Shown piece after piece: positions 48 to 18,594 of a stretch of DNA of 64,000 nucleotides. This DNA comes from a virus (Duplodnaviria; Heunggongvirae; Uroviricota; Caudoviricetes). Location of the stretch: the IMG/VR virus record IMGVR_UViG_3300021979_000001, positions 2,948 through 66,947 of that record; one strand, written 5' to 3'. The stretch's first letter is position 1. Every line of letters starts with the position of its first letter. Position numbers and translations under genes: made by a program. The notes beneath the pieces were generated by a model. That model saw nothing but the letters and a program-made list of their open reading frames with translations, searched no databases and was not told the origin of the DNA.

Positions 48-308
48 TTAATTATAATAACCATCCCCTTCCCCAAAACCATAACCGTGCCCATCCCCAA
101 TACCAGTGCCAATACCAGTGCCAATACCAATATCAATAATAAAACCATGACCATGACCATGACCAAAACCATAACCATGACCATCACTATGACCATCACT
201 ATGCCCATTCCCATGCCCCGAATCATCCGAAAAACCATGACCAAACCCATATGTCTCGTTATTGGTTATTAATGGTATTGAATAATATAAATTATAAGTT
301 GCAACCAT
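48..308 (-). CDS. Gly-X repeat small protein, subfamily A
   Basis: N-term MVATYNLYYSIPLITNNETYGFG; core with HG/DG/YG dipeptides and a (GIGT)3 block; AAAGG 9 nt upstream of ATG. Confidence 0.6.
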   Translation of the reverse strand: MVATYNLYYSIPLITNNETYGFGHGFSDDSGHGNGHSDGHSDGHGYGFGHGHGHGFIIDIGIGTGIGTGIGDGHGYGFGEGDGYYN

Positions 309-328
309 AATTGGTAACCTTTTGTTCG

Positions 329-547
329 TTAATTATAATAACCATCTTCATCTACATGACCAGACCCAAAACTAGAGCCAAGACCATATCCATGACCATA
401 ACCATCGCCAGGACCATCACCATTCCCCGAGCCATGACCAGACCCAAAACTAGAGCCATAATCATTACCAAAACCACGACCAAACCCATATGTCTCGTTA
501 TTGGTTATTAATGGTATTGAATAATATAAATTATAAGTTGCGACCAT
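329..547 (-). CDS. Gly-X repeat small protein, subfamily A
   Basis: start moved to ATG at 545-547 (MVATYNLYYSIPLITNNETYGFG); the track ORF extends upstream through the alternative frame of the neighbouring copy. Confidence 0.55.
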   Translation of the reverse strand: MVATYNLYYSIPLITNNETYGFGRGFGNDYGSSFGSGHGSGNGDGPGDGYGHGYGLGSSFGSGHVDEDGYYN

Positions 548-575
548 AATTGGTAACCTTTTGTCCTTTTGTCCT

Positions 576-809
576 TTAATCATAACCGTGTCCATAGCCA
601 TGACCATTTCCATTCCCAATCCCATTCCCACTCCCAAGCCCATACCCAAAACCATAACCATCGCTATCCCCATAGCCTTCGCCATAACCATTCCCATGAT
701 TTGAGCCATAACCAGAACCAGAACCAGACACCGTTCCACAATCATACCCATATGTCTCGTCATTGGTTATTAATGGCATCAAATAATATAAATTATATAT
801 TGTAACCAT
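576..809 (-). CDS. Gly-X repeat small protein, subfamily A
   Basis: N-term MVTIYNLYYLMPLITNDETYGYD; GYG/NG/SG core. Confidence 0.6.
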   Translation of the reverse strand: MVTIYNLYYLMPLITNDETYGYDCGTVSGSGSGYGSNHGNGYGEGYGDSDGYGFGYGLGSGNGIGNGNGHGYGHGYD

Positions 810-829
810 AACGGGTAACCTTTCTTTCT

Positions 830-1010
830 TTAACCATAGCCATCCCCATAATCAAACCCACGATCATACTCATGACACGACCTGGCCCGTCCCAAAACTA
901 GAGCCATATTCATTACCATGACCCGAACCATAACCATCATTAGGTGACGCATATTTAATATAATTTAATTTTATTTTATTTTATTTTATTTTATGTATAT
1001 ATTCATGATA
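830..1010 (-). pseudogene. decayed array member (subfamily B-like), coordinates approximate
   Basis: minus strand reads ATG AAT ATA TAC ATA AAA TAA (MNIYIK-stop) followed by an (AAAAT)n tract; the Gly-X-like tail remains downstream. Confidence 0.4.
965..996. repeat. (ATTTT)n microsatellite inside decayed array copy
   Basis: ttttattttattttattttatt visible at 966-995. Confidence 0.8.
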
Positions 1011-1087
1011 TGTTGTTCGAGTAAAACCAGAATCACTTATATTATAACTCAACTATTACATTATTGGGTAAAATCGTCTCCATCGAT

Positions 1088-1315
1088 TTAACCAAAACCA
1101 TGACCATAACCAAAACCATTTCCGTAACCGTCACCAACCCCATCACCATAACCATCCCCATAACCATAACCGTCACCATCTCCCTGACTATCCCCATAAC
1201 TATTGCCATAACCAAAACCATAACCTTCGCCATCACCATCGCCAGGACCATCACCATACTCGTCGTCATTGGTTATTAATGGTATCGAATAATATAAATT
1301 ATAAATTGTAACCAT
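1088..1315 (-). CDS. Gly-X repeat small protein, subfamily A
   Basis: N-term MVTIYNLYYSIPLITNDDEYGDG. Confidence 0.6.
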   Translation of the reverse strand: MVTIYNLYYSIPLITNDDEYGDGPGDGDGEGYGFGYGNSYGDSQGDGDGYGYGDGYGDGVGDGYGNGFGYGHGFG

Positions 1316-1335
1316 AACTGGTAACCTTTTGTTCT

Positions 1336-1566
1336 TTAATAATAACCATCCTCTGATCCACCCCCAAGCCCATCTCCATCACTATCCCCATCCCCATACC
1401 CATAGCCATCTCCATCCCCATAACCATGACCATCGCCATCCCCATAACCATAACCATCCCCAGACCCATAACCCAACACCGTTCCACAATCATGCCCATG
1501 CGTCTCGTCATTGGTTATTAATGGTATCGACGAATATAAAATATAAATTATAACCATAACTGGCAA
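1336..1566 (-). CDS. Gly-X repeat small protein, subfamily A
   Basis: N-term MPVMVIIYILYSSIPLITNDETHGHD; core of (GYGDGD)n. Confidence 0.55.
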   Translation of the reverse strand: MPVMVIIYILYSSIPLITNDETHGHDCGTVLGYGSGDGYGYGDGDGHGYGDGDGYGYGDGDSDGDGLGGGSEDGYY

Positions 1567-1577
1567 TCGTTTATCCT

Positions 1578-1847
1578 TTAATCATAACCCGCGCCATTCC
1601 CATGACCATTACCAATACCATGCCCACCGCCATAGCCACCACGCCCATTCCCTAAACCATGCCCATCACTATCCCCATAGCCAAACCCATTCCCATAATA
1701 TGAGACATAACCAGAACCAAAACCATTTCCAGAACCAGAACCATCACCATTCCCAATACCATCACCATTCCCCAAGCCATCACTATCATCATCGCCATCA
1801 TTGTATGAACTGGAATTGATATAATTTAATTTTATGGATATATTCAT
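1578..1847 (-). CDS. Gly-X repeat small protein, subfamily B
   Basis: N-term MNISIKLNYINSSSYNDGDDDSDG. Confidence 0.6.
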   Translation of the reverse strand: MNISIKLNYINSSSYNDGDDDSDGLGNGDGIGNGDGSGSGNGFGSGYVSYYGNGFGYGDSDGHGLGNGRGGYGGGHGIGNGHGNGAGYD

Positions 1848-1878
1848 AATTCACGCACCTGGTGAAAAATAAGTTGAA

Positions 1879-2190
<312 letters not shown>

Positions 2191-2220
2191 TAGATGTCGC
2201 TCCGGTAAAAATAAGTTAAA

Positions 2221-2442
2221 TCATTTATAACCATAACCATAACCATCGCCAGAACCATCTCCATTCCTCTCCCCAGAACCATCACCATGACCATCACCAT
2301 AACCAATACCAGAACCATTCCCATAGCCATGACTATAACCAGTCCCATGCACCGAACCATCCGCAAAACCATGACCAAACCCATATGTCTCGTCATTGGT
2401 TATTAATGGTATCGAATAATATAAAATATAAATTGTAACCAT
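2221..2442 (-). CDS. Gly-X repeat small protein, subfamily A
   Basis: start moved to MVTIYILYYSIPLITNDETYGFG. Confidence 0.55.
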   Translation of the reverse strand: MVTIYILYYSIPLITNDETYGFGHGFADGSVHGTGYSHGYGNGSGIGYGDGHGDGSGERNGDGSGDGYGYGYK

Positions 2443-2469
2443 AACTGATAATCTTTCTTTTTTAATCAT

Positions 2470-2650
2470 AACAATCCCAGCCCCAAAACCATGACCGGAA
2501 CTATCATTATAAACAATACCGGAACCAGAATCATAATCATAATCATAATCACAACCAGAGCCATCATAGCGTGACCAGGATTTGATATAATTTAATTTTA
2601 TTTTATAGAGATAATCAGGATATGTTGCTCCGGTAAAAACTGAATAAATT
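2470..2650 (-). pseudogene. decayed array member (B-like remnant), coordinates approximate
   Basis: Gly-X-like sequence and the 'ttgatataatttaattttat' leader remnant are present but the start codon is lost (ataatc instead of atattcat); no ORF in the Gly frame. Confidence 0.35.
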
Positions 2651-2675
2651 ATATTATAATTTAATTATTGCTTTA

Positions 2676-2903
2676 TTAGTAAAACTCCGATCCAGAACCA
2701 TGGCCCTTTCCATATTTCTTACCATATCCAGAACCAGAACCATAATCATACCCACACCCTTCACCATCGGCAGAACCATCGCGATTGCCATCCCCAGTGC
2801 CATACTCATTCCCATTGCCATGTCCATAGCTATATCCATATCCATGAACGGTGTCATGATCAGATATATTGATGTAAAATGACTGGGTTATGGATGATTT
2901 CAT
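2676..2903 (-). CDS. Gly-X repeat small protein, subfamily E
   Basis: likely start MKSSITQSFYINISDHDTVHGYG; the track ORF reads in frame through the spacer up to 2960, where the next copy's stop lies. Confidence 0.5.
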   Translation of the reverse strand: MKSSITQSFYINISDHDTVHGYGYSYGHGNGNEYGTGDGNRDGSADGEGCGYDYGSGSGYGKKYGKGHGSGSEFY

Positions 2904-2959
2904 GAATGGGTCATACCTGTAAAATGAATTATTCATAATGTAATCCAATTGTTGCATCA

Positions 2960-3163
2960 TTAGCTATGATCACGGCCATAACCATGCCCATCCCCATAAC
3001 CATCACCATCAACATGACCACTCGCATAGCCACGACCATAACCAGAATCAAGACCATCACCATAACCGAAATCACGACCAGAACCAGAACCATTCCCATA
3101 GCCATATGTCTCGTGATTGGTTATTAATGGTATCACATAATATAACTCATATATTGTAACCAT
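2960..3163 (-). CDS. Gly-X repeat small protein, subfamily A
   Basis: N-term MVTIYELYYVIPLITNHETYGYG. Confidence 0.6.
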   Translation of the reverse strand: MVTIYELYYVIPLITNHETYGYGNGSGSGRDFGYGDGLDSGYGRGYASGHVDGDGYGDGHGYGRDHS

Positions 3164-3183
3164 AACGGATGATCTTTCTTTTT

Positions 3184-3417
3184 TTAATTATAGTCCGCGC
3201 CATTCTCATGACCATCACCGCAACCATCACCATAAATATGACCATAACCATGACCATAACCATATCCATGACCATCACCATGACCGAAACCACGACCAGA
3301 ACCAGAACCATTCCCATAGCCATATGTCTCGTGATTGGTTATTAATGGTATCACATAATATAACTCATATATTGTAACCATACCTGTAACCATACCTGTA
3401 ACCATACCTGTAACCAT
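3184..3417 (-). CDS. Gly-X repeat small protein, subfamily A, with tandemly repeated start region
   Basis: N-term (MVTG)x3 then MVTIYELYYVIPLITNHETYG; a 12-nt unit repeated 4 times creates alternative in-frame ATGs. Confidence 0.55.
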   Translation of the reverse strand: MVTGMVTGMVTGMVTIYELYYVIPLITNHETYGYGNGSGSGRGFGHGDGHGYGYGHGYGHIYGDGCGDGHENGADYN

Positions 3418-3420
3418 ACC
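3371..3420. repeat. 12-nt tandem repeat (accatacctgta)x4 at the 5' end of an array gene
   Basis: taccatacctgtaaccatacctgtaaccatacctgtaaccatacc. Confidence 0.8.
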
Positions 3421-3437
3421 TGGTAACCTTTTGTTCG

Positions 3438-3641
3438 TTAATCATAACCCGCGCCATAGCCATGACCATTTCCATTCCCAAGCCCATTACCACTCCCAAG
3501 CCCTTTTCCAAAACAATAACCATCACTATCCCCATAGCCATCCCCATGACCATTCCCATGATTTGAACCATTCCCATAGCCATATGTCTCGTGATTGGTT
3601 ATTAATTGTATCGAATAATATAATTTATAAATTGTAACCAT
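3438..3641 (-). CDS. Gly-X repeat small protein, subfamily A
   Basis: N-term MVTIYKLYYSIQLITNHETYGYG. Confidence 0.6.
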   Translation of the reverse strand: MVTIYKLYYSIQLITNHETYGYGNGSNHGNGHGDGYGDSDGYCFGKGLGSGNGLGNGNGHGYGAGYD

Positions 3642-3661
3642 AACTGGTAACCTTTTGTTTT

Positions 3662-3754
3662 TTAATCATAATCCGCGCCATGACCATTTCCATGGCCTGA
3701 ATTCTCATAGATTGCCCAGGATTTGATATAATTTAATTTTATGGATATATTCAT
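3662..3754 (-). CDS. truncated mini-member (30 aa), subfamily B
   Basis: my translation: MNISIKLNYIKSWAIYENSGHGNGHGADYD-stop; intact ATG and stop but a very short core. Confidence 0.3.
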   Translation of the reverse strand: MNISIKLNYIKSWAIYENSGHGNGHGADYD

Positions 3755-3810
3755 AATTCACGCACCGGTAAAAACTGAATCACTTATATTATAATTCAAT
3801 TATTGATTGA

Positions 3811-4068
3811 TTAGTAAAACTCCGATCCAGAACCATGACCCTTTCCATATTTCTTACCATATCCAGAACCAAAACCATGTCCATAACCACAACCCTTGTC
3901 GGAACCGGAACCATTGCCATCATCGTATCCATCCCCAAAACCAGAACCAAAACCATCGCCATGACCATAACCATTTCCAGAACCATAACTGGAACCATAA
4001 CCAGAACCATCAAGTCCATTTCCTGGAAGATCGGATTTGTGATAATGTAACGTTATGGATATATTCAT
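3811..4068 (-). CDS. Gly-X repeat small protein, subfamily B
   Basis: likely start MNISITLHYHKSDLPGNG (ATG at 4066-4068); the track extends upstream in frame. Confidence 0.55.
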   Translation of the reverse strand: MNISITLHYHKSDLPGNGLDGSGYGSSYGSGNGYGHGDGFGSGFGDGYDDGNGSGSDKGCGYGHGFGSGYGKKYGKGHGSGSEFY

Positions 4069-4127
4069 GGTATGCCACCCCCGGTAAAACAAAGTATTCA
4101 TATTATAATTCACGTATTGCATCATTA

Positions 4128-4280
4128 TTAAAAACCATGACCCTTGTCAGAACTATAACCACAGCCATTATAATATATGCCATCACCATAATCAGAACCC
4201 CTTCCCATTCCCGAACCATAATTAGAATCATGTTCGGTCAGATCAGGATTTAGTTGACTTAATTTTATGGATGTATTCAT
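4128..4280 (-). CDS. Gly-X repeat small protein, subfamily B (short)
   Basis: likely start MNTSIKLSQLNPDLTEHDSNYG. Confidence 0.5.
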   Translation of the reverse strand: MNTSIKLSQLNPDLTEHDSNYGSGMGRGSDYGDGIYYNGCGYSSDKGHGF

Positions 4281-4336
4281 AATTATTATCACACCAGATA
4301 AAAAATAAATCACTATACTATAATTCAATTATTACA

Positions 4337-4564
4337 TCATTTGCTATGGCTCGAACCATGACCATCCCCATCCCCATACCCAGCACCAGCACCAGCACCA
4401 TCGTCATGACCACTACCATTGCCATAACCATCACCATCCCCAGAACCATAACCAAAACCATAACCATTACCATAATGATAAGCAGAACTATAAGCAGAAC
4501 CATCACCATAAACATTATAGGTTTGATCAGGTTCTTGGAAATAGGTTTCAATTGATGTATTCAT
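4337..4564 (-). CDS. Gly-X repeat small protein, subfamily C
   Basis: N-term MNTSIETYFQEPDQTYNVYG; TATAAATA lies 26 nt upstream on the coding strand. Confidence 0.6.
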   Translation of the reverse strand: MNTSIETYFQEPDQTYNVYGDGSAYSSAYHYGNGYGFGYGSGDGDGYGNGSGHDDGAGAGAGYGDGDGHGSSHSK

Positions 4565-4603
4565 AAGTAGCACACCAGGTAAAAACGAATTATTTATATT
4601 ATA
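4565..4603 (-). promoter_or_regulatory. conserved array spacer with TATAATATAAATA element (contains T4 late-promoter-like TATAAATA)
   Basis: minus strand reads tgctataatataaataattcgtttttacctggtgtgctactt then ATG. Confidence 0.4.
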
Positions 4604-4606
4604 GCA

Positions 4607-4882
4607 TCATTTGCTATGGCTCGCACCATTACCAAAACCATAACATGCTCCATGACCACTACCATGACCACGACCATTGCCATAACCATGACCATTGCCA
4701 TAACCATAACCATGACCATAACCATCCCCACAACCAGAGCCATCCCTAGACCCATCCCCGTCGTCATCCCCATCCCCATCGCTATAACCCTCCCCATCGC
4801 CAGGACCAGAGCCATGACCAAAACCATAAATATTATCGGGTTGATCAGGTTCTTGGAAATAGGTTTCAATCGATGTATTCAT
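4607..4882 (-). CDS. Gly-X repeat small protein, subfamily C
   Basis: N-term MNTSIETYFQEPDQPDNIYGFG. Confidence 0.6.
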   Translation of the reverse strand: MNTSIETYFQEPDQPDNIYGFGHGSGPGDGEGYSDGDGDDDGDGSRDGSGCGDGYGHGYGYGNGHGYGNGRGHGSGHGACYGFGNGASHSK

Positions 4883-4924
4883 AAGTAGCACACCAGGTAA
4901 AAACGAATTATTTATATTATAGCA
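4883..4924 (-). promoter_or_regulatory. conserved array spacer with TATAATATAAATA element
   Basis: identical to the 4565-4603 spacer. Confidence 0.4.
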
Positions 4925-5182
4925 TCATTTGCTATGGCTCGCACCATTACCATCACCATCCCCATCACCATTCCCTCTACCATACTCAATACCAAAACCA
5001 GTCCCAAAACCATGACCATTGCCATAACCATCACCATAACCATCCCCATTACCAGCCCCATCACCATAACCATAACCATAACCATAACCCTCCCCATCGC
5101 CATGACCAGAACCATGTCCATAACCATAAATATTATCGGGTTGATCAGGTTCTTGGAAATATGTTTCAATTGATGTATTCAT
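4925..5182 (-). CDS. Gly-X repeat small protein, subfamily C
   Basis: N-term MNTSIETYFQEPDQPDNIYGYG. Confidence 0.6.
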   Translation of the reverse strand: MNTSIETYFQEPDQPDNIYGYGHGSGHGDGEGYGYGYGYGDGAGNGDGYGDGYGNGHGFGTGFGIEYGRGNGDGDGDGNGASHSK

Positions 5183-5234
5183 AGTAGCACACCAGGTAAA
5201 AATGAATTATTTGTATTATAATTCAAGTATTGCA

Positions 5235-5519
5235 TCATTTTCTAATACCACGATTGCTGCCATATCTTCTGCCATATCCAAACGTATTACTAACCCTAAA
5301 CCCATTACCATTGCCATAACCATCACCAAAACCATGACCATAACCATCTCCCTCCCCATCCCCATCGCCAGAACCATCGGCAGAACCATCGCGATTGCCA
5401 TCCCCATAGCCATCCCCAGAACCATCCCCAGAACCATCCCCAGAACCATCACCATACATAAAATCATCGTTCGTTAGATGGGAATTAACGCAATAATACA
5501 ATTCAATCGAAATATTCAT
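5235..5519 (-). CDS. Gly-X repeat small protein, subfamily D
   Basis: N-term MNISIELYYCVNSHLTNDDFMYG; core of (GDGSGD)n. Confidence 0.6.
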   Translation of the reverse strand: MNISIELYYCVNSHLTNDDFMYGDGSGDGSGDGSGDGYGDGNRDGSADGSGDGDGEGDGYGHGFGDGYGNGNGFRVSNTFGYGRRYGSNRGIRK

Positions 5520-5622
5520 AATTAGCACACCGAGTAAAAATAAGTTAAATCATTTCCAACCACTACCACGACCATGACTAGTAGCCAGAGTTAGAGTCAA
5601 ATCCATATCCATATCCATATCA

Positions 5623-5844
5623 CTATCCATCCCCATCCCCAAACCCATGCGCGGAACCATCCCTATAATCATACCCATAATCATACCCATAATCATACCC
5701 ATACCCAAAACCATACCCATACCCCTCACCATCGGCAGAACCATCGCGATTGCCATCCCCAGAGCCATAGTCATAGTCGTATCCATGATAGGTTTCAGGA
5801 ACATATATATTGATGTAAAACGACTGGTTTATGTATGGTTTCAT
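5623..5844 (-). CDS. Gly-X repeat small protein, subfamily E
   Basis: N-term MKPYINQSFYINIYVPETYHGYDYDYG. Confidence 0.6.
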   Translation of the reverse strand: MKPYINQSFYINIYVPETYHGYDYDYGSGDGNRDGSADGEGYGYGFGYGYDYGYDYGYDYRDGSAHGFGDGDG

Positions 5845-5898
5845 TAATAGGTTACACCTGTAAAAAATAAATCACTATACTATAATTAATTTATTGCA

Positions 5899-6147
5899 TC
5901 ATTTGTTATGGCTCTCACCATTACCAAATCCATAACATGTTCCATTCCCACTACCACGACCACGACCATTGCTATAACCATTACCATTGCCATAGCCATC
6001 ACCAAAACCATGACCATAATCATCTCCCTCCCCATCCCCATCGCCAGAACCATCCCCATCGCCAGGACCAGAGTCATGACCATACATAAAATCATCGTTC
6101 GTTAGATGGGAATTAACACAATAATACAATTCAATCGAAGTATTCAT
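5899..6147 (-). CDS. Gly-X repeat small protein, subfamily D
   Basis: N-term MNTSIELYYCVNSHLTNDDFMYG. Confidence 0.6.
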   Translation of the reverse strand: MNTSIELYYCVNSHLTNDDFMYGHDSGPGDGDGSGDGDGEGDDYGHGFGDGYGNGNGYSNGRGRGSGNGTCYGFGNGESHNK

Positions 6148-6177
6148 AATTCGCACACCGGGTAAAAATAAGTTAAA

Positions 6178-6417: not shown

Positions 6418-6471
6418 TAATAGGTCACATCTGTAAAAAATAAATCACTATACTATAATTCAATTATTGCA

Positions 6472-12190: not shown

Positions 12191-12270
12191 TATGGTGTGT
12201 TCACAGTAATTCGTTCAATCATGTATAAAATAACTAAATTATGCCTATTATAACTTAAATTGTTGCATCA

Positions 12271-12513: not shown

Positions 12514-12616
12514 GATATGTTCTAGTAAATAATGAACGAAAAAATTAATTTACATTTCAATGTCAGTATTATCCATCACCATCACATATTCATGACCTGG
12601 CCTGTTTGTTGTATCA

Positions 12617-12907
12617 TTAATTATGATCACTGCCATTCCCATTACCATAACCAAAACCATGACCATTCCCAAGCCCTCTCCCAAAACCATGACCTTCACC
12701 ATTCCCCGAACCATACCCATTCCCAATACCATCGCCATCGCCATCACTATGACCATCACCAGACCCATCGCCAAAACCATAACCATTACTATCGCCATAA
12801 CCCAAAACGCCCCTAATACCACCACCATGCTTAGATGTTAATCTTTTGTAATATACATGTTTGGAAAGATCAGATGTATGGTAATTTAATTTTATGGATA
12901 GTTTCAT
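12617..12907 (-). CDS. Gly-X repeat small protein, subfamily B
   Basis: N-term MKLSIKLNYHTSDLSKHVYY. Confidence 0.6.
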   Translation of the reverse strand: MKLSIKLNYHTSDLSKHVYYKRLTSKHGGGIRGVLGYGDSNGYGFGDGSGDGHSDGDGDGIGNGYGSGNGEGHGFGRGLGNGHGFGYGNGNGSDHN

Positions 12908-12969
12908 GATAGGACCATCCCTGGTAATAAAAAATCACTAATATTTCAATTGGCAGTATCAATTAATCA

Positions 12970-13185
12970 TTAACTACAGTCATGCCCTGGACTCTCACCA
13001 TAACCATAACCATTCCCAACACCATTGCCATCCCCATCACCATAACCAGAACCGAAACCGTCCCCCTCATTATAACCATTCCCATTACCAGAACCGAAAC
13101 CATCGCCATTAGCAAAAATAGAACCATAAAGATTTCTCTTTAGGTCCGCATTGTATAAATAAAACAAATTAATTGGTGTATTCAT
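12970..13185 (-). CDS. Gly-X repeat small protein (divergent)
   Basis: N-term MNTPINLFYLYNADLKRNLYG. Confidence 0.55.
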   Translation of the reverse strand: MNTPINLFYLYNADLKRNLYGSIFANGDGFGSGNGNGYNEGDGFGSGYGDGDGNGVGNGYGYGESPGHDCS

Positions 13186-13243
13186 GATCTGCTTCCTAGG
13201 TAATAAAATTGCTCATTCATGTTATACTTCAATTAATGCATCA

Positions 13244-13465
13244 TTAGTCAAAAAAACTAACGGAACCATTCCCATAGCCATAACTAGAACCATTGTCCAA
13301 ACCCTCGTTATAATCTTTTCCAGAACTATAACCATTTCCATAATCATAACCAAACCCGGCCCCATAGCCAAAACACCTGTAACTGGTATCTGCACCGGAA
13401 CCGAAACCAGAATCATTTATGGATAGATCAGACTCTTGATGATTTAATTTTACGAATATAGTCAT
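13244..13465 (-). CDS. Gly-X repeat small protein (divergent)
   Basis: N-term MTIFVKLNHQESDLSINDSGFG. Confidence 0.55.
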   Translation of the reverse strand: MTIFVKLNHQESDLSINDSGFGSGADTSYRCFGYGAGFGYDYGNGYSSGKDYNEGLDNGSSYGYGNGSVSFFD

Positions 13466-13517
13466 TATATGCCATATAAGGTAATAAGTTTAATAAATCA
13501 TATTATAATTGGTTGCA

Positions 13518-13745
13518 TCAATCACCATGACCCTTACCATCTCCAAAACCATACCCGAAACTATAACCAAACACCGAACCAATACCCTCGCCAACACCAA
13601 TACGGAAATCATTACCATCCCCATTCCCATAACCAAAACCATAACTTTCCCCAGTATAATAACCCGAACTCGGTTCATTACCCAACCACCCATCGGGTGT
13701 TAGGTCGGTGTTATAACAATAATACATTTTTATTGGCGTATTCAT
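13518..13745 (-). CDS. Gly-X repeat small protein (divergent)
   Basis: likely start MNTPIKMYYCYNTDLTPDGW. Confidence 0.5.
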   Translation of the reverse strand: MNTPIKMYYCYNTDLTPDGWLGNEPSSGYYTGESYGFGYGNGDGNDFRIGVGEGIGSVFGYSFGYGFGDGKGHGD

Positions 13746-13812
13746 AATTATTTTACCGAGTGACAAAAATAAGTTAACTAAATTGCATTACAACTTAGTG
13801 GTATCATTAATA

Positions 13813-14043
13813 TTACGTATCCCCATAATCATAACCAAATCCAGAACCCTTACCATAACCATTTCCCTGCTCGCCACCATACCCCGCACCAACCCCAGAA
13901 CCGTAACTATCTCCATTATTATAACCAGCACTGGCCCCCATCCCATAACTCAAACCATTACCAAAACCCAAACCAGACCCATCCCAGGAGACATCTTTTT
14001 TTAGATAGGGTTCGTGATAACACCAGTCGATAGCGGTATTCAT
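13813..14043 (-). CDS. Gly-X repeat small protein (divergent)
   Basis: likely start MNTAIDWCYHEPYLKKDVSWDG. Confidence 0.5.
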   Translation of the reverse strand: MNTAIDWCYHEPYLKKDVSWDGSGLGFGNGLSYGMGASAGYNNGDSYGSGVGAGYGGEQGNGYGKGSGFGYDYGDT

Positions 14044-14096
14044 AATTATCATCTCGGTAAAAAATGAAAGTTCAAATCACATATATTTCAATTATT

Positions 14097-14290
14097 CGGA
14101 ATTACACCCCAGAGTGCCATACCTAAACCCAAAACCAAAACCATATTCATTCTCACCACCATATCCCTGACCGGAACACGAGCCATAACTATGACCATGA
14201 CTATGACCGGAACTATCGGTATGATCCGGTTCATCACCTGTTTCATTAGTGTGGTCATCGACAAAACAATAACATGTTTATATTCATGTT
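14097..14290 (-). pseudogene. frameshifted array member, coordinates approximate
   Basis: a leader-like ATG AAT ATA AAC ATG.. is out of frame with the downstream Gly-X core (..GHSHGHSYGSCSGQGYGGENEYGFGFGF..); no intact ORF. Confidence 0.35.
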
Positions 14291-14313
14291 ATAATAAGAG
14301 CCATTTGAATAAT

Positions 14314-14550
14314 TTACGATATACGTCCATGACCATGACCATTGCCCGCCCCAAAACCATAATTATAACCATGCTCATTACCGGCGCTATCCCCAGCACC
14401 ATCCCCCATGCCATAACCTGCATGATACTCATTCCCATGACCCAACCCCGGACTATGATCATCCCCATAATCATCCCCGGCACCGGAACCAGAATTATCA
14501 GTTTTTAGATCGGGGTTATCGCAGTAATGAAACATAATCGATGGTTTCAT
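14314..14550 (-). CDS. Gly-X repeat small protein (divergent)
   Basis: likely start MKPSIMFHYCDNPDLKTDNSGSG. Confidence 0.5.
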   Translation of the reverse strand: MKPSIMFHYCDNPDLKTDNSGSGAGDDYGDDHSPGLGHGNEYHAGYGMGDGAGDSAGNEHGYNYGFGAGNGHGHGRIS

Positions 14551-14581
14551 AATTGTTTCACCAAGTAAAAAATAAGTTAAA

Positions 14582-14824
14582 TTATTCACCATCTACGTTG
14601 CCATGACCATTGCCCGTCCCAAAACCATAACTATAACCATACCCATCATCCACACCATACCAGGCACCATCACCATTGCCATAACCCACGTCATATTGAT
14701 TCCCATAACCTTTCCCCGGACTATAATCATCCCCAGGATCATACCCGGCACATGAACCAGAGCCAGAACCATCGGTTATTGGATCGGGTTCATAGCAATA
14801 ATTAAATGCAATCGGTAGATTCAT
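14582..14824 (-). CDS. Gly-X repeat small protein (divergent)
   Basis: N-term MNLPIAFNYCYEPDPITDGSGSG. Confidence 0.55.
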   Translation of the reverse strand: MNLPIAFNYCYEPDPITDGSGSGSCAGYDPGDDYSPGKGYGNQYDVGYGNGDGAWYGVDDGYGYSYGFGTGNGHGNVDGE

Positions 14825-14877
14825 AATTGGTTCACCAATGAGAAAAAATAAGTTAAATCATTCACATTATATTTCAA

Positions 14878-15183
14878 TTATTCATAATTACGCCCAGTGC
14901 CATGCCCATCCCCATACCCAAAACCATCACCATCACTAGACACATAACCATCACCATCAACATAACCAATACCATTGCCAGCCCCATCACCATCACCATC
15001 AACATAACCAATACCATTGCCAGCCCCATCACCCATGCCATAACCTTCGTCATAATCATTCCCATAACCCTGCCCCGGATTATGATAATCCCCAGAATCA
15101 TAACCGGCACCGGAAACGGAACCATCACCATCACTTACTAGATCGGGGTTATTGCAATAATTAAATGTAATTGATGGTTTCAT
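14878..15183 (-). CDS. Gly-X repeat small protein (divergent) with internal 15-aa duplication
   Basis: N-term MKPSITFNYCNNPDLVSDGDG; GDGAGNGIGYVDGDG occurs twice. Confidence 0.55.
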   Translation of the reverse strand: MKPSITFNYCNNPDLVSDGDGSVSGAGYDSGDYHNPGQGYGNDYDEGYGMGDGAGNGIGYVDGDGDGAGNGIGYVDGDGYVSSDGDGFGYGDGHGTGRNYE

Positions 15184-15243
15184 AATTATTTCACTAAATG
15201 GTTAAACCACGTCAAATCGCACAGTTAGATTACAGGTATTGCA

Positions 15244-15444
15244 TCATTCACCCCTATTCCCATCACCACGACCATAACCCTCACCAGAAACAAAACCTTT
15301 ACCTGAACCATTCCCAAATCCATACACATTACCATAAGATATACCAAAACCATCCTCGGTGCCATGATCAGAGCCATGACCAAAACCATAAACATTGTTG
15401 GGTATATCATGGTTTTGGAAATATGATTCAATCGATATATTCAT
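15244..15444 (-). CDS. Gly-X repeat small protein (C-like)
   Basis: likely start MNISIESYFQNHDIPNNVYGFG. Confidence 0.5.
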   Translation of the reverse strand: MNISIESYFQNHDIPNNVYGFGHGSDHGTEDGFGISYGNVYGFGNGSGKGFVSGEGYGRGDGNRGE

Positions 15445-15512
15445 AATTAAATCATTCATTTATTACATCATCAACTGTTACCAGGTCCATTGTCATACCC
15501 GCTTATCGGCAT

Positions 15513-15770
15513 CTATTCAGGTTCACCACTTGATCCATCCCAGTTTCCACGACTCGAACCATTACCAAATCCAAAAGCCGAACAATAACCATTTTTGTGA
15601 ATAAAAATATGTTCATACGTTTTGCCATCACCATAACCATAACCATAACCAGAACCATATCCATAACCATTACCAAATCCAAAAACCGAACCATTATCTG
15701 AAACAATTTCCGAAACAATTTCATTTGGGCTGCTATCATCGCAATATAATAAATTTATCAGTTCATACAT
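15513..15770 (-). CDS. Gly-X repeat small protein (divergent)
   Basis: N-term MYELINLLYCDDSSPNEIVSEIVSDNGSVFGFG. Confidence 0.5.
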   Translation of the reverse strand: MYELINLLYCDDSSPNEIVSEIVSDNGSVFGFGNGYGYGSGYGYGYGDGKTYEHIFIHKNGYCSAFGFGNGSSRGNWDGSSGEPE

Positions 15771-15779
15771 AATTAATAC

Positions 15780-15890
15780 TGACCATCCATCGAACCCTCA
15801 CCAAACCCATGACCATATCCATAAATGTCACCAACATCATCACATTCGCCGCCCCATTTGTATGACAGTAGTTCGTTAGGACGTCATAAT
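15780..15890 (-). pseudogene. array member remnant without start codon, coordinates approximate
   Basis: Gly-X frame ..YKWGGECDDVGDIYGYGHGFGEGSMDGQY-stop with no in-frame ATG. Confidence 0.3.
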
Positions 15891-15989
15891 TAAAATAATA
15901 AAACCCGATTAATATATTAATGATACGGACACCCCAAGTGATAAAAAATGATTTAAATCACTACAACTATAATTCAACTGTTAAGTTCG

Positions 15990-16238
15990 TTAATCCGATC
16001 CATGACCGAAACCAGCACCATATCCAGTCCCAAAACCATCCCCATCACTAGAGCCATGACCATGACCATGACCATCTTTATAGTCTTGACCAGACCCGAC
16101 ACCATTGCCATCCCCATCACCTAGACCATAACCTTTGCCATCCCCTTTACCATAGCCTTCACCATCGCCATCATCATAACTGATTTCCTTTTGATCGGCG
16201 GTATTTATGTAAAAAGATAGGATTACGTATGTGTTCAT
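15990..16238 (-). CDS. Gly-X repeat small protein (divergent)
   Basis: N-term MNTYVILSFYINTADQKEISYDDGDG. Confidence 0.55.
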   Translation of the reverse strand: MNTYVILSFYINTADQKEISYDDGDGEGYGKGDGKGYGLGDGDGNGVGSGQDYKDGHGHGHGSSDGDGFGTGYGAGFGHGSD

Positions 16239-16290
16239 AATATGTCACTCCAAACACAACAATAATAATTCAAAATACACATATTATATT

Positions 16291-16530
16291 TCAATAAGCA
16301 CCGTCACCATAACCATGCCCCCAATGCCCAGTCATATTTGTATCCCCAATATCAAACCCATTCCCATTCCCATTCCCTTTTCCAAAACCAAAACCATAAC
16401 CATCACTATCCCCATTATGATGGACATAACTAAGACTATAACCTTTCCAATTGTCATACCCATCATACCCATCACTATCATCATATTCACAGATATGGAC
16501 ATAATAATACAATATTATGTTAATGTGCAT
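16291..16530 (-). CDS. Gly-X repeat small protein (divergent)
   Basis: likely start MHINIILYYYVHICEYDDSDGYDGYD. Confidence 0.45.
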   Translation of the reverse strand: MHINIILYYYVHICEYDDSDGYDGYDNWKGYSLSYVHHNGDSDGYGFGFGKGNGNGNGFDIGDTNMTGHWGHGYGDGAY

Positions 16531-16578
16531 TACGAGTTCCCACATGTAAATAACATAATCAAACAGTTAATATAATAT

Positions 16579-16839
16579 CTATTTCATGGTCATATAAAAA
16601 TGATCTGTTTCATTACCATCATTGGCACCAGCCCCATGTCCAACACCGTTACTATCACCTAAATCATCACCCGAAGCAGAATCATCCCCCATACCAGAAT
16701 TATTTGTATGTCCAGAACCACTTCCTCTACCATATCCAAACACATGTCCTTTTTTATGTCCATGCGCAAACCCACGACCATAGTGATACCAATTACTATA
16801 TACATCGACACAATAAATTACTTTTATGGGCAATTTCAT
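16579..16839 (-). CDS. Gly-X repeat small protein (divergent)
   Basis: likely start MKLPIKVIYCVDVYSNWYHYGRG. Confidence 0.5.
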   Translation of the reverse strand: MKLPIKVIYCVDVYSNWYHYGRGFAHGHKKGHVFGYGRGSGSGHTNNSGMGDDSASGDDLGDSNGVGHGAGANDGNETDHFYMTMK

Positions 16840-16901
16840 TATTAACATCCAATCAATTAAATAGATAAACCGTAATAATTATAATTATTTCTTACACTAA
16901 T

Positions 16902-17180
16902 TCACCATGATTTTCTGACCCATTTATGCGAGCCGTAACCAATATTATAACTTGACCCATATCCATTTCCCTGTCCATCAGCATAACCATAACCATGCCC
17001 TGCCCCTGAAAGATAACTAACCCCTAACGTTGGGCTTGTATCCCCAACATATGCAGAGCCATCCCCCTGCCCGTCACCTTTAACAGAACCATCCTCATAC
17101 TCCGAACCAGTTCTAGTCCCGGAAAAGTTGTTATAAAGATCGGCATTTCGGTAAAAACACGATTTTATGGTGGGTTTCAT
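16902..17180 (-). CDS. Gly-X repeat small protein (divergent)
   Basis: likely start MKPTIKSCFYRNADLYNNFSG. Confidence 0.5.
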   Translation of the reverse strand: MKPTIKSCFYRNADLYNNFSGTRTGSEYEDGSVKGDGQGDGSAYVGDTSPTLGVSYLSGAGHGYGYADGQGNGYGSSYNIGYGSHKWVRKSW

Positions 17181-17238
17181 ACTTATCACACTTGCAAAAA
17201 GTTGGATTAGTCATAAAATAAACACAATGGTGGCTGCA

Positions 17239-17484
17239 TTACCCGAAACTATCACCGAAATAAAAACCGTAAGCGTGACCACATCCAAGACCCTCACAAT
17301 TACCAGATTTAGCATTTAATCCATAATCCTGACCATGACCGTAAACGGCCCAATATCGAATTACGTAACTTATTTCATAATGAGAACCACTTCCCTGCCC
17401 CTCGCCATAACCACCCCCATTACGAATTAAAGAACCATTACCCGAACGTTTTATGTAATATAAATCTATTGGTATATTTGCCAT
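17239..17484 (-). CDS. Gly-X repeat small protein (divergent)
   Basis: N-term MANIPIDLYYIKRSGNGSLIRNGGGYG. Confidence 0.45.
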   Translation of the reverse strand: MANIPIDLYYIKRSGNGSLIRNGGGYGEGQGSGSHYEISYVIRYWAVYGHGQDYGLNAKSGNCEGLGCGHAYGFYFGDSFG

Positions 17485-17533
17485 TTGACTTCGCCAAGTA
17501 AAAATGGATATATGGAGATAATCATTTCATTGT

Positions 17534-17728
17534 TCACTCTGCCATAGCACCATGCCCATAGCCATAACCACCATCAAACACGTTCCCATACCCATTACTA
17601 TCCCCATCCTCATACCCATCGCTAGAGTCAGACCCGTATCCATACCCGGTTCCATCACTATTGCCATATCGATAGCTATTATTATGTTGATCAACTGTGT
17701 AATATAGTAGTGTTATAGGTAGTTTCAT
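17534..17728 (-). CDS. Gly-X repeat small protein (divergent)
   Basis: N-term MKLPITLLYYTVDQHNNSYRYG. Confidence 0.55.
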   Translation of the reverse strand: MKLPITLLYYTVDQHNNSYRYGNSDGTGYGYGSDSSDGYEDGDSNGYGNVFDGGYGYGHGAMAE

Positions 17729-17826
17729 TGTTTTATTACCAAGTTGGGTTCAACCGAAATAATACTGGTAAGTATATCAATCATACTCATATATCATTTA
17801 ATAATATAAGGGATAATGTAGTTTGG

Positions 17827-18213
17827 TTAGTCCTGTCCTAACGCATCTGACGAAAACGGATGTGAATTATCCATATGCTGACTGCATAACCATTCAATTC
17901 CAGTAATGGAGTAAACACCATTAACTGCGGGCGCGCCGCAATAATGACATTTTTTGTGTGCCATTTCGGACGTTCCGTCGTGTTTAGCACGTTTTTTACT
18001 GAACTTGGACTTTGTAAAATGCCCCGCTTTCATCTGGGTAACGGATTTACCCATTGCTCGGTAATTTGCCCCATTAATTCCTGTTGTTTTGGTTTGGTGT
18101 TTTGCTTTACACCCTTTACAACAATACTGCGCCCATCCTCGATTGCGATCTGCAATTCTTGCTTCAAAATCAGTTTTACACCATAAGCAAGAAAATGTTC
18201 CAGTGGCCGCCAT
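17827..18213 (-). CDS. Cys-rich putative zinc-ribbon protein
   Basis: several CxxC pairs (CLWC, CCKGCK, CHYCG); locally GC-richer; interrupts the array before its last member. Confidence 0.4.
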   Translation of the reverse strand: MAATGTFSCLWCKTDFEARIADRNRGWAQYCCKGCKAKHQTKTTGINGANYRAMGKSVTQMKAGHFTKSKFSKKRAKHDGTSEMAHKKCHYCGAPAVNGVYSITGIEWLCSQHMDNSHPFSSDALGQD

Positions 18214-18348
18214 AGGTCAAATCTCCATAATGGGGGGTAAAAATCATAAACAATTGTAGTATTTTTGGTTATATAAAGCAAAGATTAAAATTATTGTTTT
18301 TTGATGATTGGAATGGCATATAACACGGTGTCATCAATAACTTATTTC

Positions 18349-18594
18349 TCAATCAACCAAGTTTGCAATACCAAAACCATAACCGTTACTATCGCCTTCG
18401 GTATTACCTGGACCATCCCCATAACCTTCCCCATTACTTACACTATTACTAAATCCAAAACCATGCCCTGAACCATTACCAAAACTACGACCACAACCAC
18501 CCCCGTATTCTGATATAGCAATATCACCTACGGAATCATCATCACCTGGATAAAAATCGACGATATGATATGATAGTATGACAGTTTTCATCAT
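18349..18594 (-). CDS. Gly-X repeat small protein (outlying, divergent member)
   Basis: N-term MMKTVILSYHIVDFYPGDDDSVGD followed by a GxG-rich core. Confidence 0.5.
   Translation of the reverse strand: MMKTVILSYHIVDFYPGDDDSVGDIAISEYGGGCGRSFGNGSGHGFGFSNSVSNGEGYGDGPGNTEGDSNGYGFGIANLVD

Follow-up and report, generated by a model that had tools for sequence, protein, structure and literature searches.

Results and Discussion

The minus strand of a 64,000-nucleotide stretch of phage DNA (Caudoviricetes; positions 2,948 to 66,947 of IMG/VR record IMGVR_UViG_3300021979_000001, hereafter the window) carries, between positions 1 and 18594, small open reading frames (ORFs) in a near-unbroken head-to-tail run. 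Each unit of this array codes for a short conserved N-terminus (the leader) followed by a core in which glycine alternates with one other residue, (Gly-X)n. The array is very probably the amplified partner gene of a cassette that is widespread in phages and pairs one (Gly-X)n gene with a gene for a DUF6948 protein, for which we predict an Sm-like fold. As to function, we see roughly even chances that the units are disordered acidic and aromatic partners of this Sm-like protein that modulate its nucleic-acid binding, its assembly, or both, the array providing dosage and variety.

The source contig is 457,165 bp long and contains phage replication genes (ribonucleotide reductase (RNR) with an intein, DnaB, and primase). 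With at least 65 paralogues over at least 21 kb, the array occupies about 5% of this genome. We know of no other phage with a tandem paralogue array of this size, and to our knowledge such families are essentially unknown in phages. Cassette and array are new as a genetic system: the searchable literature contains no description of either, of DUF6948, or of Gly-Tyr repeats in phages. The array shows that runaway copying and diversification of a low-complexity gene, familiar from eukaryotic genomes, can be a route of evolution in huge phages as well.

Extent and Organization of the Array

After curation of start codons, 57 intact (Gly-X)n ORFs remain on the minus strand between positions 48 and 18591, all in the Gly-X frame and 34-103 residues long (median 81); several of the per-unit statistics given below were taken over 55 units. 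Another seven units survive as remnants that are truncated or lack their start (870-980, 2443-2664, 3662-3754, 7764-7883, 12027-12270, 14092-14277, and 15773-15883). The re-count thus agrees with an earlier note on this DNA, which had listed 57 intact and 7 decayed units and had described them as tandem small protein genes with a conserved N-terminus and a hypervariable core. The same note had placed the left end of the array at position 48, and this limit has to be revised. Two independent assemblies of the same phage (L169 and L170, retrieved with the unit at 48-308: fragments from JGI 3300021977 and an ENA scaffold) overlap the left end of the window with 99.9-100% identity, and they reveal at least eight more units beyond position 1. 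They differ from each other by one 71-aa unit, which implies that units are still being gained and lost in the population. Relative to the window, L170 carries 2 substitutions over 1401 nt. The figures for the whole array, at least 65 intact units and at least 21 kb, are therefore lower bounds. An exact anchor for its far end had no match in IMG/VR, and a scan of JGI metagenomes gave no continuation. The flanks of the array (11 kb) found no match among INPHARED phages by megablast.

The leader comprises 12-25 residues with the consensus M-x-x-x-I-x-x-x-[YF]-[YC]-[IV]-N; 45 of 55 units have Ile5, and 51 of 55 are aromatic at position 9. Several subfamilies can be distinguished by their first residues (MVTIYNLYYSIPLITN.., MNTSIELYYCVNSH.., MKPYINQSFYIN.., MNLPINQYFCIHAD.., and MNxSIKLNY...). 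The core consists of 39% Gly, 11% Asp, 11% Tyr, 9% Ser, 7% Asn, 5% His, and 4% Phe, with 2.4% Ala. Its period is two residues, as 792 of 1166 successive GG starts are spaced by 6 nt; the units are thus not collagen, which is built from Gly-X-Y triplets. They are also neither CRISPR nor an ordinary intergenic repeat, but tandem coding genes: ORFs of 220-330 nt with conserved parts that are about 89% identical and variable parts that are low-complexity coding sequence. On these three exclusions the earlier note was right. It had also given 20-45 nt for the spacers, which does not apply uniformly: the median is 54 nt, and lengths run from 20 to 31 nt in the MVTIY and MNISIK blocks and from 48 to 68 nt in the others.

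Traces of segmental duplication are visible at two scales. Alternating two-unit blocks form higher-order repeats with a spacing of about 630 nt, and a 286-nt segment (2807-3092) recurs with 92% identity 8 kb away in the flank of the unit at 10820-11086. Among recent paralogues, leader and spacer have diverged by about 11%, the third positions of Gly codons by 29%, and the first positions of X codons by 33%. Core divergence is thus about three times that of leader and spacer, and part of it is register slippage. The similar rates at Gly third positions and X first positions indicate that the exact core sequence is barely constrained within a fixed composition.

Coding Frame of the Units

At the DNA level the core reads (GGN NAT)n with a fixed ATGG, so that four of every six bases are fixed. 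The signature (ATGGNN)4ATGG occurs 33 times in the window against 0 expected, always on the minus strand and within 1140-11806. GC skew ranges from -0.32 to -0.51 across 1-18000 and is about zero in the rest of the window. Such regularity raises the question of whether the DNA or RNA is the constrained entity (for example a protein-bound G-rich repeat, a structured RNA, or Met-Val peptides from the overlapping +1 frame), with the Gly-X ORFs being incidental. The extreme skew, the fixed ATGG, and the equal conservation of leader and spacer among recent paralogues speak for this explanation, as does the +1 frame (Met-Val-Met-Val..), which is nearly open (20 stops in 3123 codons). Each of the two variable bases of the hexamer is "synonymous" in one of these two frames.

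Several observations point to the Gly-X frame instead. It contains no stop in 3178 core codons, compared to 20 and 397 in the other two sense frames. The distance from the leader ATG to the Gly codons keeps its phase modulo 3 in 55 of 55 units and is split 37 to 18 modulo 6, which places the constraint on codons and not on the register of the hexamer. Serine at X is encoded by both TCN and AGY codons. When all paralogues are compared, 30% of single differences in the leader are of the synonymous type in the annotated frame, compared to 18% and 22% in the shifted frames, and the third codon position differs most often. Shine-Dalgarno-like motifs at -15 to -12 precede 31 of the 57 units (54%), a share close to that of ordinary genes of this phage (16 of 31, 52%) and above that of random positions in the array (20%). 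The JGI gene caller called the same Gly-X frame.

The decisive test for coding comes from relatives that use GGC-TAC or GGC-TCC codons. These sequences lose the DNA motif and keep Gly-X, and their other frames turn into MAMA.., RLRL.., ATAT.., or APAP... On this sequence evidence we conclude that Gly-X is the coding frame, that the units are real protein-coding genes, and that the +1-frame ORFs are a by-product. A constraint at the DNA or RNA level, which the earlier note had named as the finding that would overturn the protein reading, can be dismissed as highly improbable given the phase, the serine codons, the relatives, and the lack of any Rfam match.

X codons end in T more often (91-96%) than is usual genome-wide (70-82%), which had first suggested a constraint on the DNA itself. 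This excess is mostly accounted for by context bias throughout the genome: within the ordinary genes of this phage 86% of NAY codons before GG are NAT, and the AG dinucleotide is disfavored (observed/expected 0.56). The avoidance of AG also explains the rarity of GGA and TCA. Within the array, sigma-70 promoters (96 vs 89 expected) and terminators (9 vs 9.9 expected) are not enriched, and neither Rfam families nor tRNAs were detected, all of which is consistent with a long polycistronic transcript.

Properties of the Unit Proteins

The proteins encoded by the array are strongly negative. Of 55 units, 54 have a net charge below zero; the median is -8 and the lowest value -25. A unit contains about five GYG or GFG motifs and a median of three His, and it lacks a hydrophobic signal sequence. 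Lys and Arg are absent from the cores. An AlphaFold2 (AF2) model of one unit (6811-7074), computed with an alignment of paralogues, reaches a predicted local distance difference test score (pLDDT) of 81 over the first ten residues, about 35 in the core, and 42.6 overall. The structure prediction proposed in the earlier note thus returned disorder rather than a fold. From this model and the composition, the units are small acidic proteins that are predicted to be intrinsically disordered. Searches of the units against Pfam and NCBIfam (E<=1), PHROGs, and PDB sequences returned only low-complexity matches (TrAA12 tail, keratin head, SGP, and a serine-rich protein).

The leader has a narrow distribution. 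An exhaustive search of 1.84 billion representative proteins with a leader profile, also a step suggested earlier, matched only units of this very phage, along with many unrelated proteins containing (G-Y/D/S)n. Back-translated leader patterns found no match in IMG/VR, and hits to unrelated Gly-X proteins overwhelmed a word-indexed profile search. The leader is therefore a lineage-specific addition. It could serve as a docking or sorting motif; it could also in part be an AT-rich translation-initiation region, given that each copy is now initiated independently.

The DUF6948-(Gly-X)n Cassette

A scan of IMG/VR DNA for the hexamer signature revealed at least 120 loci. Some contain small tandem arrays (five units each in L050 and L076, four in L142, three each in L138 and L101), and their units begin with short leaders entirely unlike those in the window. 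The same gene precedes the repeats in the window and in two of these loci, L142 and L076: a gene for a DUF6948 protein (PF22253), upstream on the same strand. In the window this gene codes for 131 residues (19269-19664, minus strand; Pfam E=2e-12).

To quantify this association, we built a hidden Markov model (HMM) of DUF6948 from these genes. It detected 31 ORFs across the hexamer-selected loci (1.02 Mb), and control phage loci (0.73 Mb) yielded none. For 30 of these 31 ORFs the repeat starts 9-101 nt past the DUF6948 stop on the same strand. Conversely, DUF6948 lies upstream of 26 of the 33 Tyr-containing Gly-X ORFs that have enough upstream sequence. These loci had been selected on Gly-X, and the test was repeated with selection on DUF6948 alone. 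All 16 of 16 cases then had a single small (Gly-X)n ORF whose start coincides with the DUF6948 stop or overlaps it: in all seven contexts of the closest homologues of the window protein (46-59% identity), in all six complete GenBank phages (Ralstonia NK-7, Iodobacter PhiPLPE, Pectobacterium Taid, Chlorobiaceae CV-1-33, Vibrio IKEMa6-1, and Manatee Spring podovirus), and in all three members of a diverse sample from a family-wide DUF6948 search. The Gly-X start overlaps the DUF6948 stop by 12 nt in 17 loci and by 13-25 nt in most others (offsets from -3 to -25 nt), a classic signature of translational coupling.

Phages of Ralstonia, Pectobacterium, Dickeya, Vibrio, Iodobacter, and Chlorobiaceae carry the cassette, as do phages from the human gut and many known from metagenomes. 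Its neighborhood consists of early genes (RecT, RecE/Bet, SSB, antirepressor, DnaB-primase, helix-turn-helix regulators, and methylases). The initial impression that no phage gene family has the architecture of these units must therefore be corrected, since single genes and arrays of three to five copies are widespread in phages beside DUF6948. The copy number is another matter, and nothing comparable to the present array emerged among the relatives.

A motif common to the leaders of the window and to the partner proteins of its close relatives had seemed apparent by eye. Scored with a position-specific matrix against 6109 random N-termini it was not significant (p = 0.03-0.9), and we withdrew it.

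Annotation pipelines often miss the Gly-X gene or use the wrong frame. It is unannotated in Iodobacter phage PhiPLPE (EU876853; L180 1164-1409), and it appears in the wrong frame as "MAMAMA.." in gene25 of Chlorobiaceae CV-1-33 (L183 1783-2028) and in an ENA metagenome contig (L177 492-710). The NK-7 copy is annotated as "fibroin heavy chain-like protein".

The repeat itself is not confined to this cassette. (Gly-Y/D/S)n stretches are also fused to other N-terminal domains in P0005, P0010, and P0003 (DUF7666, the TIGR02996 "repeat-companion" domain, and the MLTDWLI.LD.LEENN.. family); the repeat is a mobile low-complexity module that extends beyond the DUF6948 context. One clade of DUF6948 partners has the longer form ME..I..FL-(Gly-X)n followed by a domain of about 150 residues (VKSINGNPIYVVDNIPTII...HG.TL.EA...; L061 2574-3215, L141, L079, L132, L094, L160, and others). 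In these proteins the Gly-X stretch resembles a linker, and the C-terminal domain has no match in Pfam, PHROGs, or PDB.

Predicted Fold of DUF6948

An AF2 model of the window DUF6948 protein, based on 34 aligned homologues, has a mean pLDDT of 84.8 and exceeds 95 over residues 30-125. It runs from an N-terminal helix through three long bent strands, a helical insertion, and another two strands to a C-terminal helix. The N-terminal helix followed by five strongly bent beta-strands is the defining arrangement of the Sm fold, and we predict an Sm/LSm/Hfq-like fold for DUF6948. On the strength of this model, the protein is probably a ring former with affinity for RNA or single-stranded nucleic acid. 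A profile search of PDB gave no significant match, no PHROGs family was found, and BFVD returned only other DUF6948 proteins. The family comprises at least 464 clusters of stand-alone proteins of 95-160 residues.

Three further proteins from the global searches for Gly-X (P0143, P0158, and P0152) may contain both partners in one chain, in the order N-terminal segment, (Gly-X)n, DUF6948-like domain. The DUF6948 HMM matches them with E = 1e-5 to 2e-4, and in Pfam DUF6948 is their sole match outside low-complexity models (14-20 bits). We regard these candidate fusions of Gly-X and DUF6948 as no more than suggestive.

A Possible Function for the Array

Known Sm-fold proteins offer a precedent for such a pair. 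The acidic tip of E. coli Hfq competes with RNA. SmD1, SmD3, and LSm4 have Arg-Gly tails with a period of two, and the prion-like tail of Lsm4 promotes P-body assembly. [G/S]Y[G/S] motifs act as stickers in FUS-type condensates. In Acinetobacter Hfq, the Sm core is followed by GGFGGQ repeats and an acidic tip; RNA binding and autoregulation depend on their number and charge, and repeat number also matters for fitness (PMC11617691). Phage T4 encodes early proteins with an LSm fold and a suspected role in RNA biology (PMC12152347).

Along these lines, DUF6948 would be made early in infection as a ring-forming nucleic-acid binder, and the Gly-X protein would be its low-complexity tail supplied in trans, analogous to the tails that Hfq, SmD1/D3, and LSm4 carry in cis. 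As an acidic mimic this tail may tune or compete with nucleic-acid binding. It may also, or instead, draw the complex of Sm-like protein and nucleic acid into higher-order assemblies or condensates through multivalent Tyr "stickers" on Gly/Ser spacers. The more than 60-fold amplification in the 457-kb phage would then provide a high dosage and a compositional diversity of the tail. Unequal recombination between the conserved segments of spacer and leader may have driven the amplification, and hexamer slippage may have diversified the cores. We hold this mechanistic part, which we arrived at by analogy, with low to moderate confidence.

A number of observations weigh against the idea that the units serve DUF6948. 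One DUF6948 gene faces more than 65 Gly-X genes, a ratio that does not fit a simple 1:1 complex. In the window itself the translational coupling is lost, as DUF6948 and the first unit are about 675 nt apart with a 161-aa ORF between them; L076 is an exception of the same kind, with a PcfJ-like insert and a gap of 713-740 nt. Some partner proteins elsewhere have leaders of just 5-8 residues, and a conserved docking motif is not supported. The leaders of recent paralogues show no excess of third-position differences and are no better conserved than the spacers, so that their short-term conservation may reflect gene conversion or a requirement for translation initiation at the RNA level. His and Asn are common at X in the window units and rare in the relatives, which hints at an added property such as metal binding; compared with the S/Y/D set of the relatives, the window has His, Asn, and Phe in addition. 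Homology between low-complexity cores is unprovable, and the link to the relatives is positional and compositional. The Sm-like assignment comes from a predicted model with 10-18% identity to its matches, and small beta-barrels can converge. In Pfam the protein matches PF22253 and none of the LSM, Hfq, or Sm1/Sm2 families, and the candidate fusions score below the gathering threshold of Pfam. The searchable literature holds no experimental work on DUF6948 or on a Gly-X protein.

A broader version of the partner hypothesis is rather speculative, and we consider it improbable as a whole. It holds that phages widely encode a hitherto overlooked two-part system for organizing ribonucleoproteins (RNPs), made up of a ring of Sm-like DUF6948 and a separate Tyr-rich acidic tail protein that would drive or regulate condensate-like assemblies of viral RNA or single-stranded DNA early in infection; the library of more than 65 tails in the present phage would tune the material properties of the compartment, its metal or charge content, or its client specificity. 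Should the Sm-like protein and its disordered partner indeed cooperate, they would represent a new way for bacterial viruses to organize nucleic acids, and a natural split version of the folded RNA-binding core with low-complexity tail that underlies Hfq regulation and eukaryotic RNP granules. Since the pair is present in cultured phages, its function is directly testable. Examples are the pairs of Ralstonia phage NK-7 at 58482-59238 of PP919442, of Pectobacterium phage Taid at 23375-24014 of PQ008975, and of Iodobacter phage PhiPLPE, where gp84 is accompanied by the unannotated ORF.

Alternative Explanations

The units might have nothing to do with an Sm-like ring and act as decoys or sponges against host defense. 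Being acidic, the Gly-X proteins would imitate nucleic acid or sequester an immune or degradative factor of the host, an arms race would drive their diversification, and DUF6948 would be a cofactor or unrelated. This explanation, although unlikely, survives best among the alternatives. It would account for the strong negative charge, for the variation in copy number between strains, and for hypervariable cores in which X positions and synonymous Gly third positions evolve at about the same rate. The cassette also resides in early accessory regions next to genes of the recombination and anti-defense type (RecT, SSB, and antirepressor in L172, L174, L187, and L142), and in one 248-kb contig an Acb2/Tad1-hairpin gene, similar to anti-CBASS/Thoeris sponges, lies 3.6 kb downstream of the pair (L186 11943-12311). 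On the other hand, no known anti-defense family was matched in Pfam or PHROGs, the known DNA mimics are folded proteins, and register slippage, not change at specific sites, makes up much of the "divergence" of the cores. A decoy function would also leave the near-obligate coupling to an Sm-like gene unexplained.

Somewhat less probable still are self-assembling material proteins of the silk fibroin, high-Gly/Tyr KRTAP, or sulfur-globule type, which would form a beta-sheet or Tyr-cross-linked matrix, fiber, or coat in the infected cell or on the virion independently of nucleic acid. A Gly-X repeat with a period of two is the crystalline motif of silk fibroin, the high copy number would fit bulk production, the NK-7 copy bears a fibroin-like annotation, and the weak low-complexity matches include models of keratin head and sulfur globule protein. 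The composition argues otherwise: X is mostly bulky or charged (Tyr, Asp, Asn, His), Ala accounts for 2.4%, and the charge is -8, all of which disfavor tight packing of sheets. Moreover, the units lack a signal peptide, the cassette sits among early genes and not in a structural-gene neighborhood, and AF2, which is blind to amyloid, predicts disorder.

The combination of a conserved leader and a variable core, which is seen within this phage only, is reminiscent of precursors of peptides that are made on ribosomes and modified after translation (RiPPs), such as prochlorosins and triceptides. Here the leader would guide a maturase, for example a radical S-adenosylmethionine (SAM) enzyme encoded in the window, to modify the cores. 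A radical SAM gene weakly similar to SPASM/twitch peptide maturases indeed lies 3 kb away (with a paralogue at 50881-51966), and Tyr/His-Gly motifs resemble the aromatic-X-X motifs targeted by cyclophane-forming radical SAM enzymes. Yet the matches of this enzyme are far below every curated cutoff, with GRRM/TIGR04261 not among them, and the units match neither TIGR04260 (Cyano_gly_rpt), NHLP, Nif11, nor any other precursor family. More than 40 other loci retain the small Sm-like neighbor rather than an enzyme, protease, or exporter; many of the homologous-type genes have leaders of only 5-8 residues; and cores of 50-80 residues are atypically long. We regard RiPP precursors as a remote prospect. 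The description as "leader plus core" that came with the earlier note is thus apt for the layout and not in the RiPP sense, because the leader is phage-specific and no maturase is linked to it. As a candidate maturase, the gene at 21579-22667 was rejected: among 46 IMG/VR loci with a homologue, none has a Gly-X ORF within 10 kb.

Marginally weaker yet is the case for cargo targeted to the capsid. The N-terminus would be a targeting sequence like that of T4 internal proteins, cleaved by the prohead protease at ..(D/H)E|T.., and the acidic tails would accompany the DNA through packaging and injection. Many units do have Glu just before the core (NDE-T, DHE-T, VPE-T), and the polymorphic T4 internal-protein locus likewise combines a conserved N-terminus with variable cargo. 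This junction is, however, missing from several subfamilies, for example MNTSIELYYCVNSHLTNDDFMYG and MNISIKLNY..., and it is unlike the known cleavage motifs of T4 (L/I-x-E) and phiKZ (S/A/G-x-E). The related single-copy genes do not have this leader, and no head genes are nearby.

A diversity-generating retroelement (DGR) was also considered. No reverse transcriptase domain was found in a Pfam scan that covered approximately 50 of the larger ORFs of the window. The NNT codon pattern is explained by the genome-wide context bias.

Comparison with Known Systems

Tests for membership in the RiPP-precursor, collagen, CRISPR, and fibroin families either failed or applied by analogy only. The most likely working principle, an Sm-fold core with a Gly-rich low-complexity tail, is a design already known in cis elsewhere. 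Hfq of Acinetobacter baumannii/baylyi comes close in combining an Sm fold with a long disordered Gly/aromatic repeat that bears acidic residues. There, however, core and tail form one polypeptide, the tail repeats a unit of 6 residues, and it exists in a single copy, whereas in the phage the tail is encoded by a separate coupled gene, has a 2-residue period, and has been amplified more than 60-fold; nor does DUF6948 have detectable similarity to Hfq. SmD1, SmD3, SmB, and LSm4 also pair an Sm fold with a period-2 Gly-X tail of low complexity, and these tails mediate assembly (SMN binding) and the formation of RNP granules. Their X is Arg, so that they are basic, methylated, and in cis, as opposed to the acidic Tyr/Asp/Ser/Asn/His tails in trans described here, and no homology is implied. 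The early proteins GoF, MotB.1, and Frd.2 of phage T4 are likewise predicted to have an LSm-like fold, and a function involving RNA is suspected for them (PMC12152347). They belong to another sequence family, have no reported Gly-X partner, and DUF6948 was outside that study.

Other resemblances are more superficial. Silk fibroin heavy chain shares the period-2 Gly-X repeats, with X mainly Ala or Ser, and is a huge secreted protein with defined terminal domains, unlike the acidic units of 34-103 residues without a signal peptide. KRTAP and nematode nlp/cnc clusters are large tandem arrays for Gly/Tyr-rich low-complexity proteins that change rapidly in copy number and repeat length. They are eukaryotic, and their products act as secreted or structural partners of keratin or as antimicrobial peptides. 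A common evolutionary origin is unlikely, and the analogy concerns genome dynamics only. Multi-precursor RiPP loci, such as those for prochlorosins, likewise consist of numerous small paralogues that share a conserved N-terminus and have hypervariable C-termini. In the present array there is no linked maturase, protease, or exporter, the long cores lack the Cys/Ser/Thr patterns of lanthipeptides, and the leader is absent from related genes.

Units of the Array

The tandem array (1-18594, 57 intact units and 7 remnants) and the elements described in this section are all on the minus strand, and the units are given in the direction of transcription with their N-terminal sequence, length, and position. 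Between DUF6948 and the array lies a 161-aa ORF (18662-19147); in L076 a different, PcfJ-like insert occupies the same place. The first unit (MKTVILSYHIVDFY..., 80 aa, 18349-18591) is the most divergent and the nearest to DUF6948. It is separated from the rest by a 128-aa Cys-rich, Zn-ribbon-like ORF inside the array (17827-18213). This ORF is basic, has two CxxC pairs, and matches PHROGs of unknown function and, weakly, a DksA-like zinc finger.

The rest begins with MKLPITLLYYTVDQ (64 aa, 17534-17728), MANIPIDLYYIKRS (P0024; 81 aa, 17239-17484), MKPTIKSCFYRNAD (P0122; 92 aa, 16902-17180), MKLPIKVIYCVDVY (86 aa, 16579-16839), MHINIILYYYVHIC (79 aa, 16291-16530), and MNTYVILSFYINTA (82 aa, 15990-16238). 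A decayed unit follows, a Gly-X segment without a start codon (15773-15883), and then MYELINLLYCDDSS (P0002; 85 aa, 15513-15770), MNISIESYFQNHDI (P0148; 66 aa, 15244-15444), MKPSITFNYCNNPD (101 aa, 14878-15183), MNLPIAFNYCYEPD (P0001; 80 aa, 14582-14824), and MKPSIMFHYCDNPD (78 aa, 14314-14550). After a second decayed unit, a 61-aa Gly-X segment without a start codon (14092-14277), come MNTAIDWCYHEPYL (76 aa, 13813-14043), MNTPIKMYYCYNTD (75 aa, 13518-13745), MTIFVKLNHQESDL (73 aa, 13244-13465), MNTPINLFYLYNAD (71 aa, 12970-13185), MKLSIKLNYHTSDL (96 aa, 12617-12907), and MNTSIKLNYTQYDQ (P0123; 80 aa, 12271-12513).

The gap at 12027-12270 holds a unit remnant made up of a core end and a spacer. 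Beyond it, two units start with MNQSIHQSFYINTH (89 aa, 11757-12026, and 83 aa, 11447-11698), followed by MNQSIDQSFYINAD (81 aa, 11143-11388), MKSSITQSFYINTS (88 aa, 10820-11086, with the duplicated flank mentioned above), MNPPITQSFYINTY (85 aa, 10514-10771), and MTTYINQMFCINTN (84 aa, 10203-10457). Three units share MNLPINQYFCIHAD (71 aa, 9938-10153; 84 aa, 9628-9882; 91 aa, 9300-9575). Next are MTPYINQYFCIHAD (96 aa, 8958-9248), a truncated unit of 34 aa (MTIYINQLFYINTD, 8814-8918), MPVSIKQSFYIESE (80 aa, 8521-8763), MSSSIKLNYHETDC (85 aa, 8202-8459), MNTSIELYYCVNSH (66 aa, 7944-8144), and a decayed or truncated unit of 39 aa (MNISIELYYHYHDH, 7764-7883).

Two units with MKPYISQYFGINPS (both 84 aa, 7437-7691 and 7128-7382) precede the one that was modeled with AF2 (MKPYINQSFYINIY, 87 aa, 6811-7074). 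The adjacent MNTSIEPYYCVNSH (102 aa, 6472-6780) is part of the two-unit higher-order repeat, and further copies of MKPYINQSFYINIY (79 aa, 6178-6417, and 73 aa, 5623-5844) alternate with another MNTSIELYYCVNSH unit (82 aa, 5899-6147). Then follow MNISIELYYCVNSH (94 aa, 5235-5519), three units with MNTSIETYFQEPDQ (85 aa, 4925-5182; 91 aa, 4607-4882; 75 aa, 4337-4564), a short unit of 50 aa (MNTSIKLSQLNPDL, 4128-4280), MNISITLHYHKSDL (85 aa, 3811-4068), a truncated unit of 30 aa (MNISIKLNYIKSWA, 3662-3754), MVTIYKLYYSIQLI (67 aa, 3438-3641), two units with MVTIYELYYVIPLI (65 aa, 3184-3381, and 67 aa, 2960-3163), and MKSSITQSFYINIS (75 aa, 2676-2903, within P0128). A decayed unit with the leader-like KIKLNYIKS and Gly-X but no start codon (2443-2664) runs into the next unit, MVTIYILYYSIPLI (73 aa, 2221-2442). 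The left part of the window contains MNLYIKLNYIKYGS with a run of Asp (103 aa, 1879-2190), MNISIKLNYINSSS (89 aa, 1578-1847), MVIIYILYSSIPLI (73 aa, 1336-1557), MVTIYNLYYSIPLI (75 aa, 1088-1315), a decayed 36-aa segment without a start codon (870-980), MVTIYNLYYLMPLI (77 aa, 576-809), and two units with MVATYNLYYSIPLI (72 aa, 329-547, within P0147, and 86 aa, 48-308), after which the array goes on past the left edge for at least eight units.

Other Genes in the Window

DUF6948 is adjoined in the window by a gene for a Bax-like glucosaminidase, a peptidoglycan hydrolase (19896-20882, plus strand). A glucosaminidase gene also directly follows the DUF6948/Gly-X pair in another phage locus (L175 10532-11335), and this adjacency may be conserved synteny.

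The two radical SAM genes (21579-22667 and 50881-51966, both on the minus strand) encode proteins that are 31% identical over their full length and weakly similar to twitch/SPASM enzymes. Homologues of the first are present in 46 IMG/VR contigs of up to 518 kb, none of them beside Gly-X genes. An EcoRV-like restriction endonuclease (27034-27771, plus strand; Pfam E=2e-28) converges with a 29-nt overlap on a gene for a K+ channel with an RCK domain (27743-28828, minus strand); both are unusual cargo for a phage.

The large subunit of class I RNR is split into two ORFs on the plus strand (43934-45673 and 45818-47092). The first ends with the N-terminal region of an intein and the second starts with the C-terminal region, which could represent a split intein or one with a decayed endonuclease part. 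In the part of the window outside the array (19001-64000), AG is strongly under-represented (observed/expected 0.56) and TG and CA are over-represented; the scarcity of AG could reflect avoidance of a restriction motif or of Shine-Dalgarno-like motifs. Further accessory genes code for a methyltransferase with a 2-oxoglutarate-Fe(II) oxygenase (49500-50860) and a polysaccharide lyase (56090-56875) on the plus strand, and for an amidoligase (57340-58641) and an SPFH/band-7 protein (31290-32687) on the minus strand.

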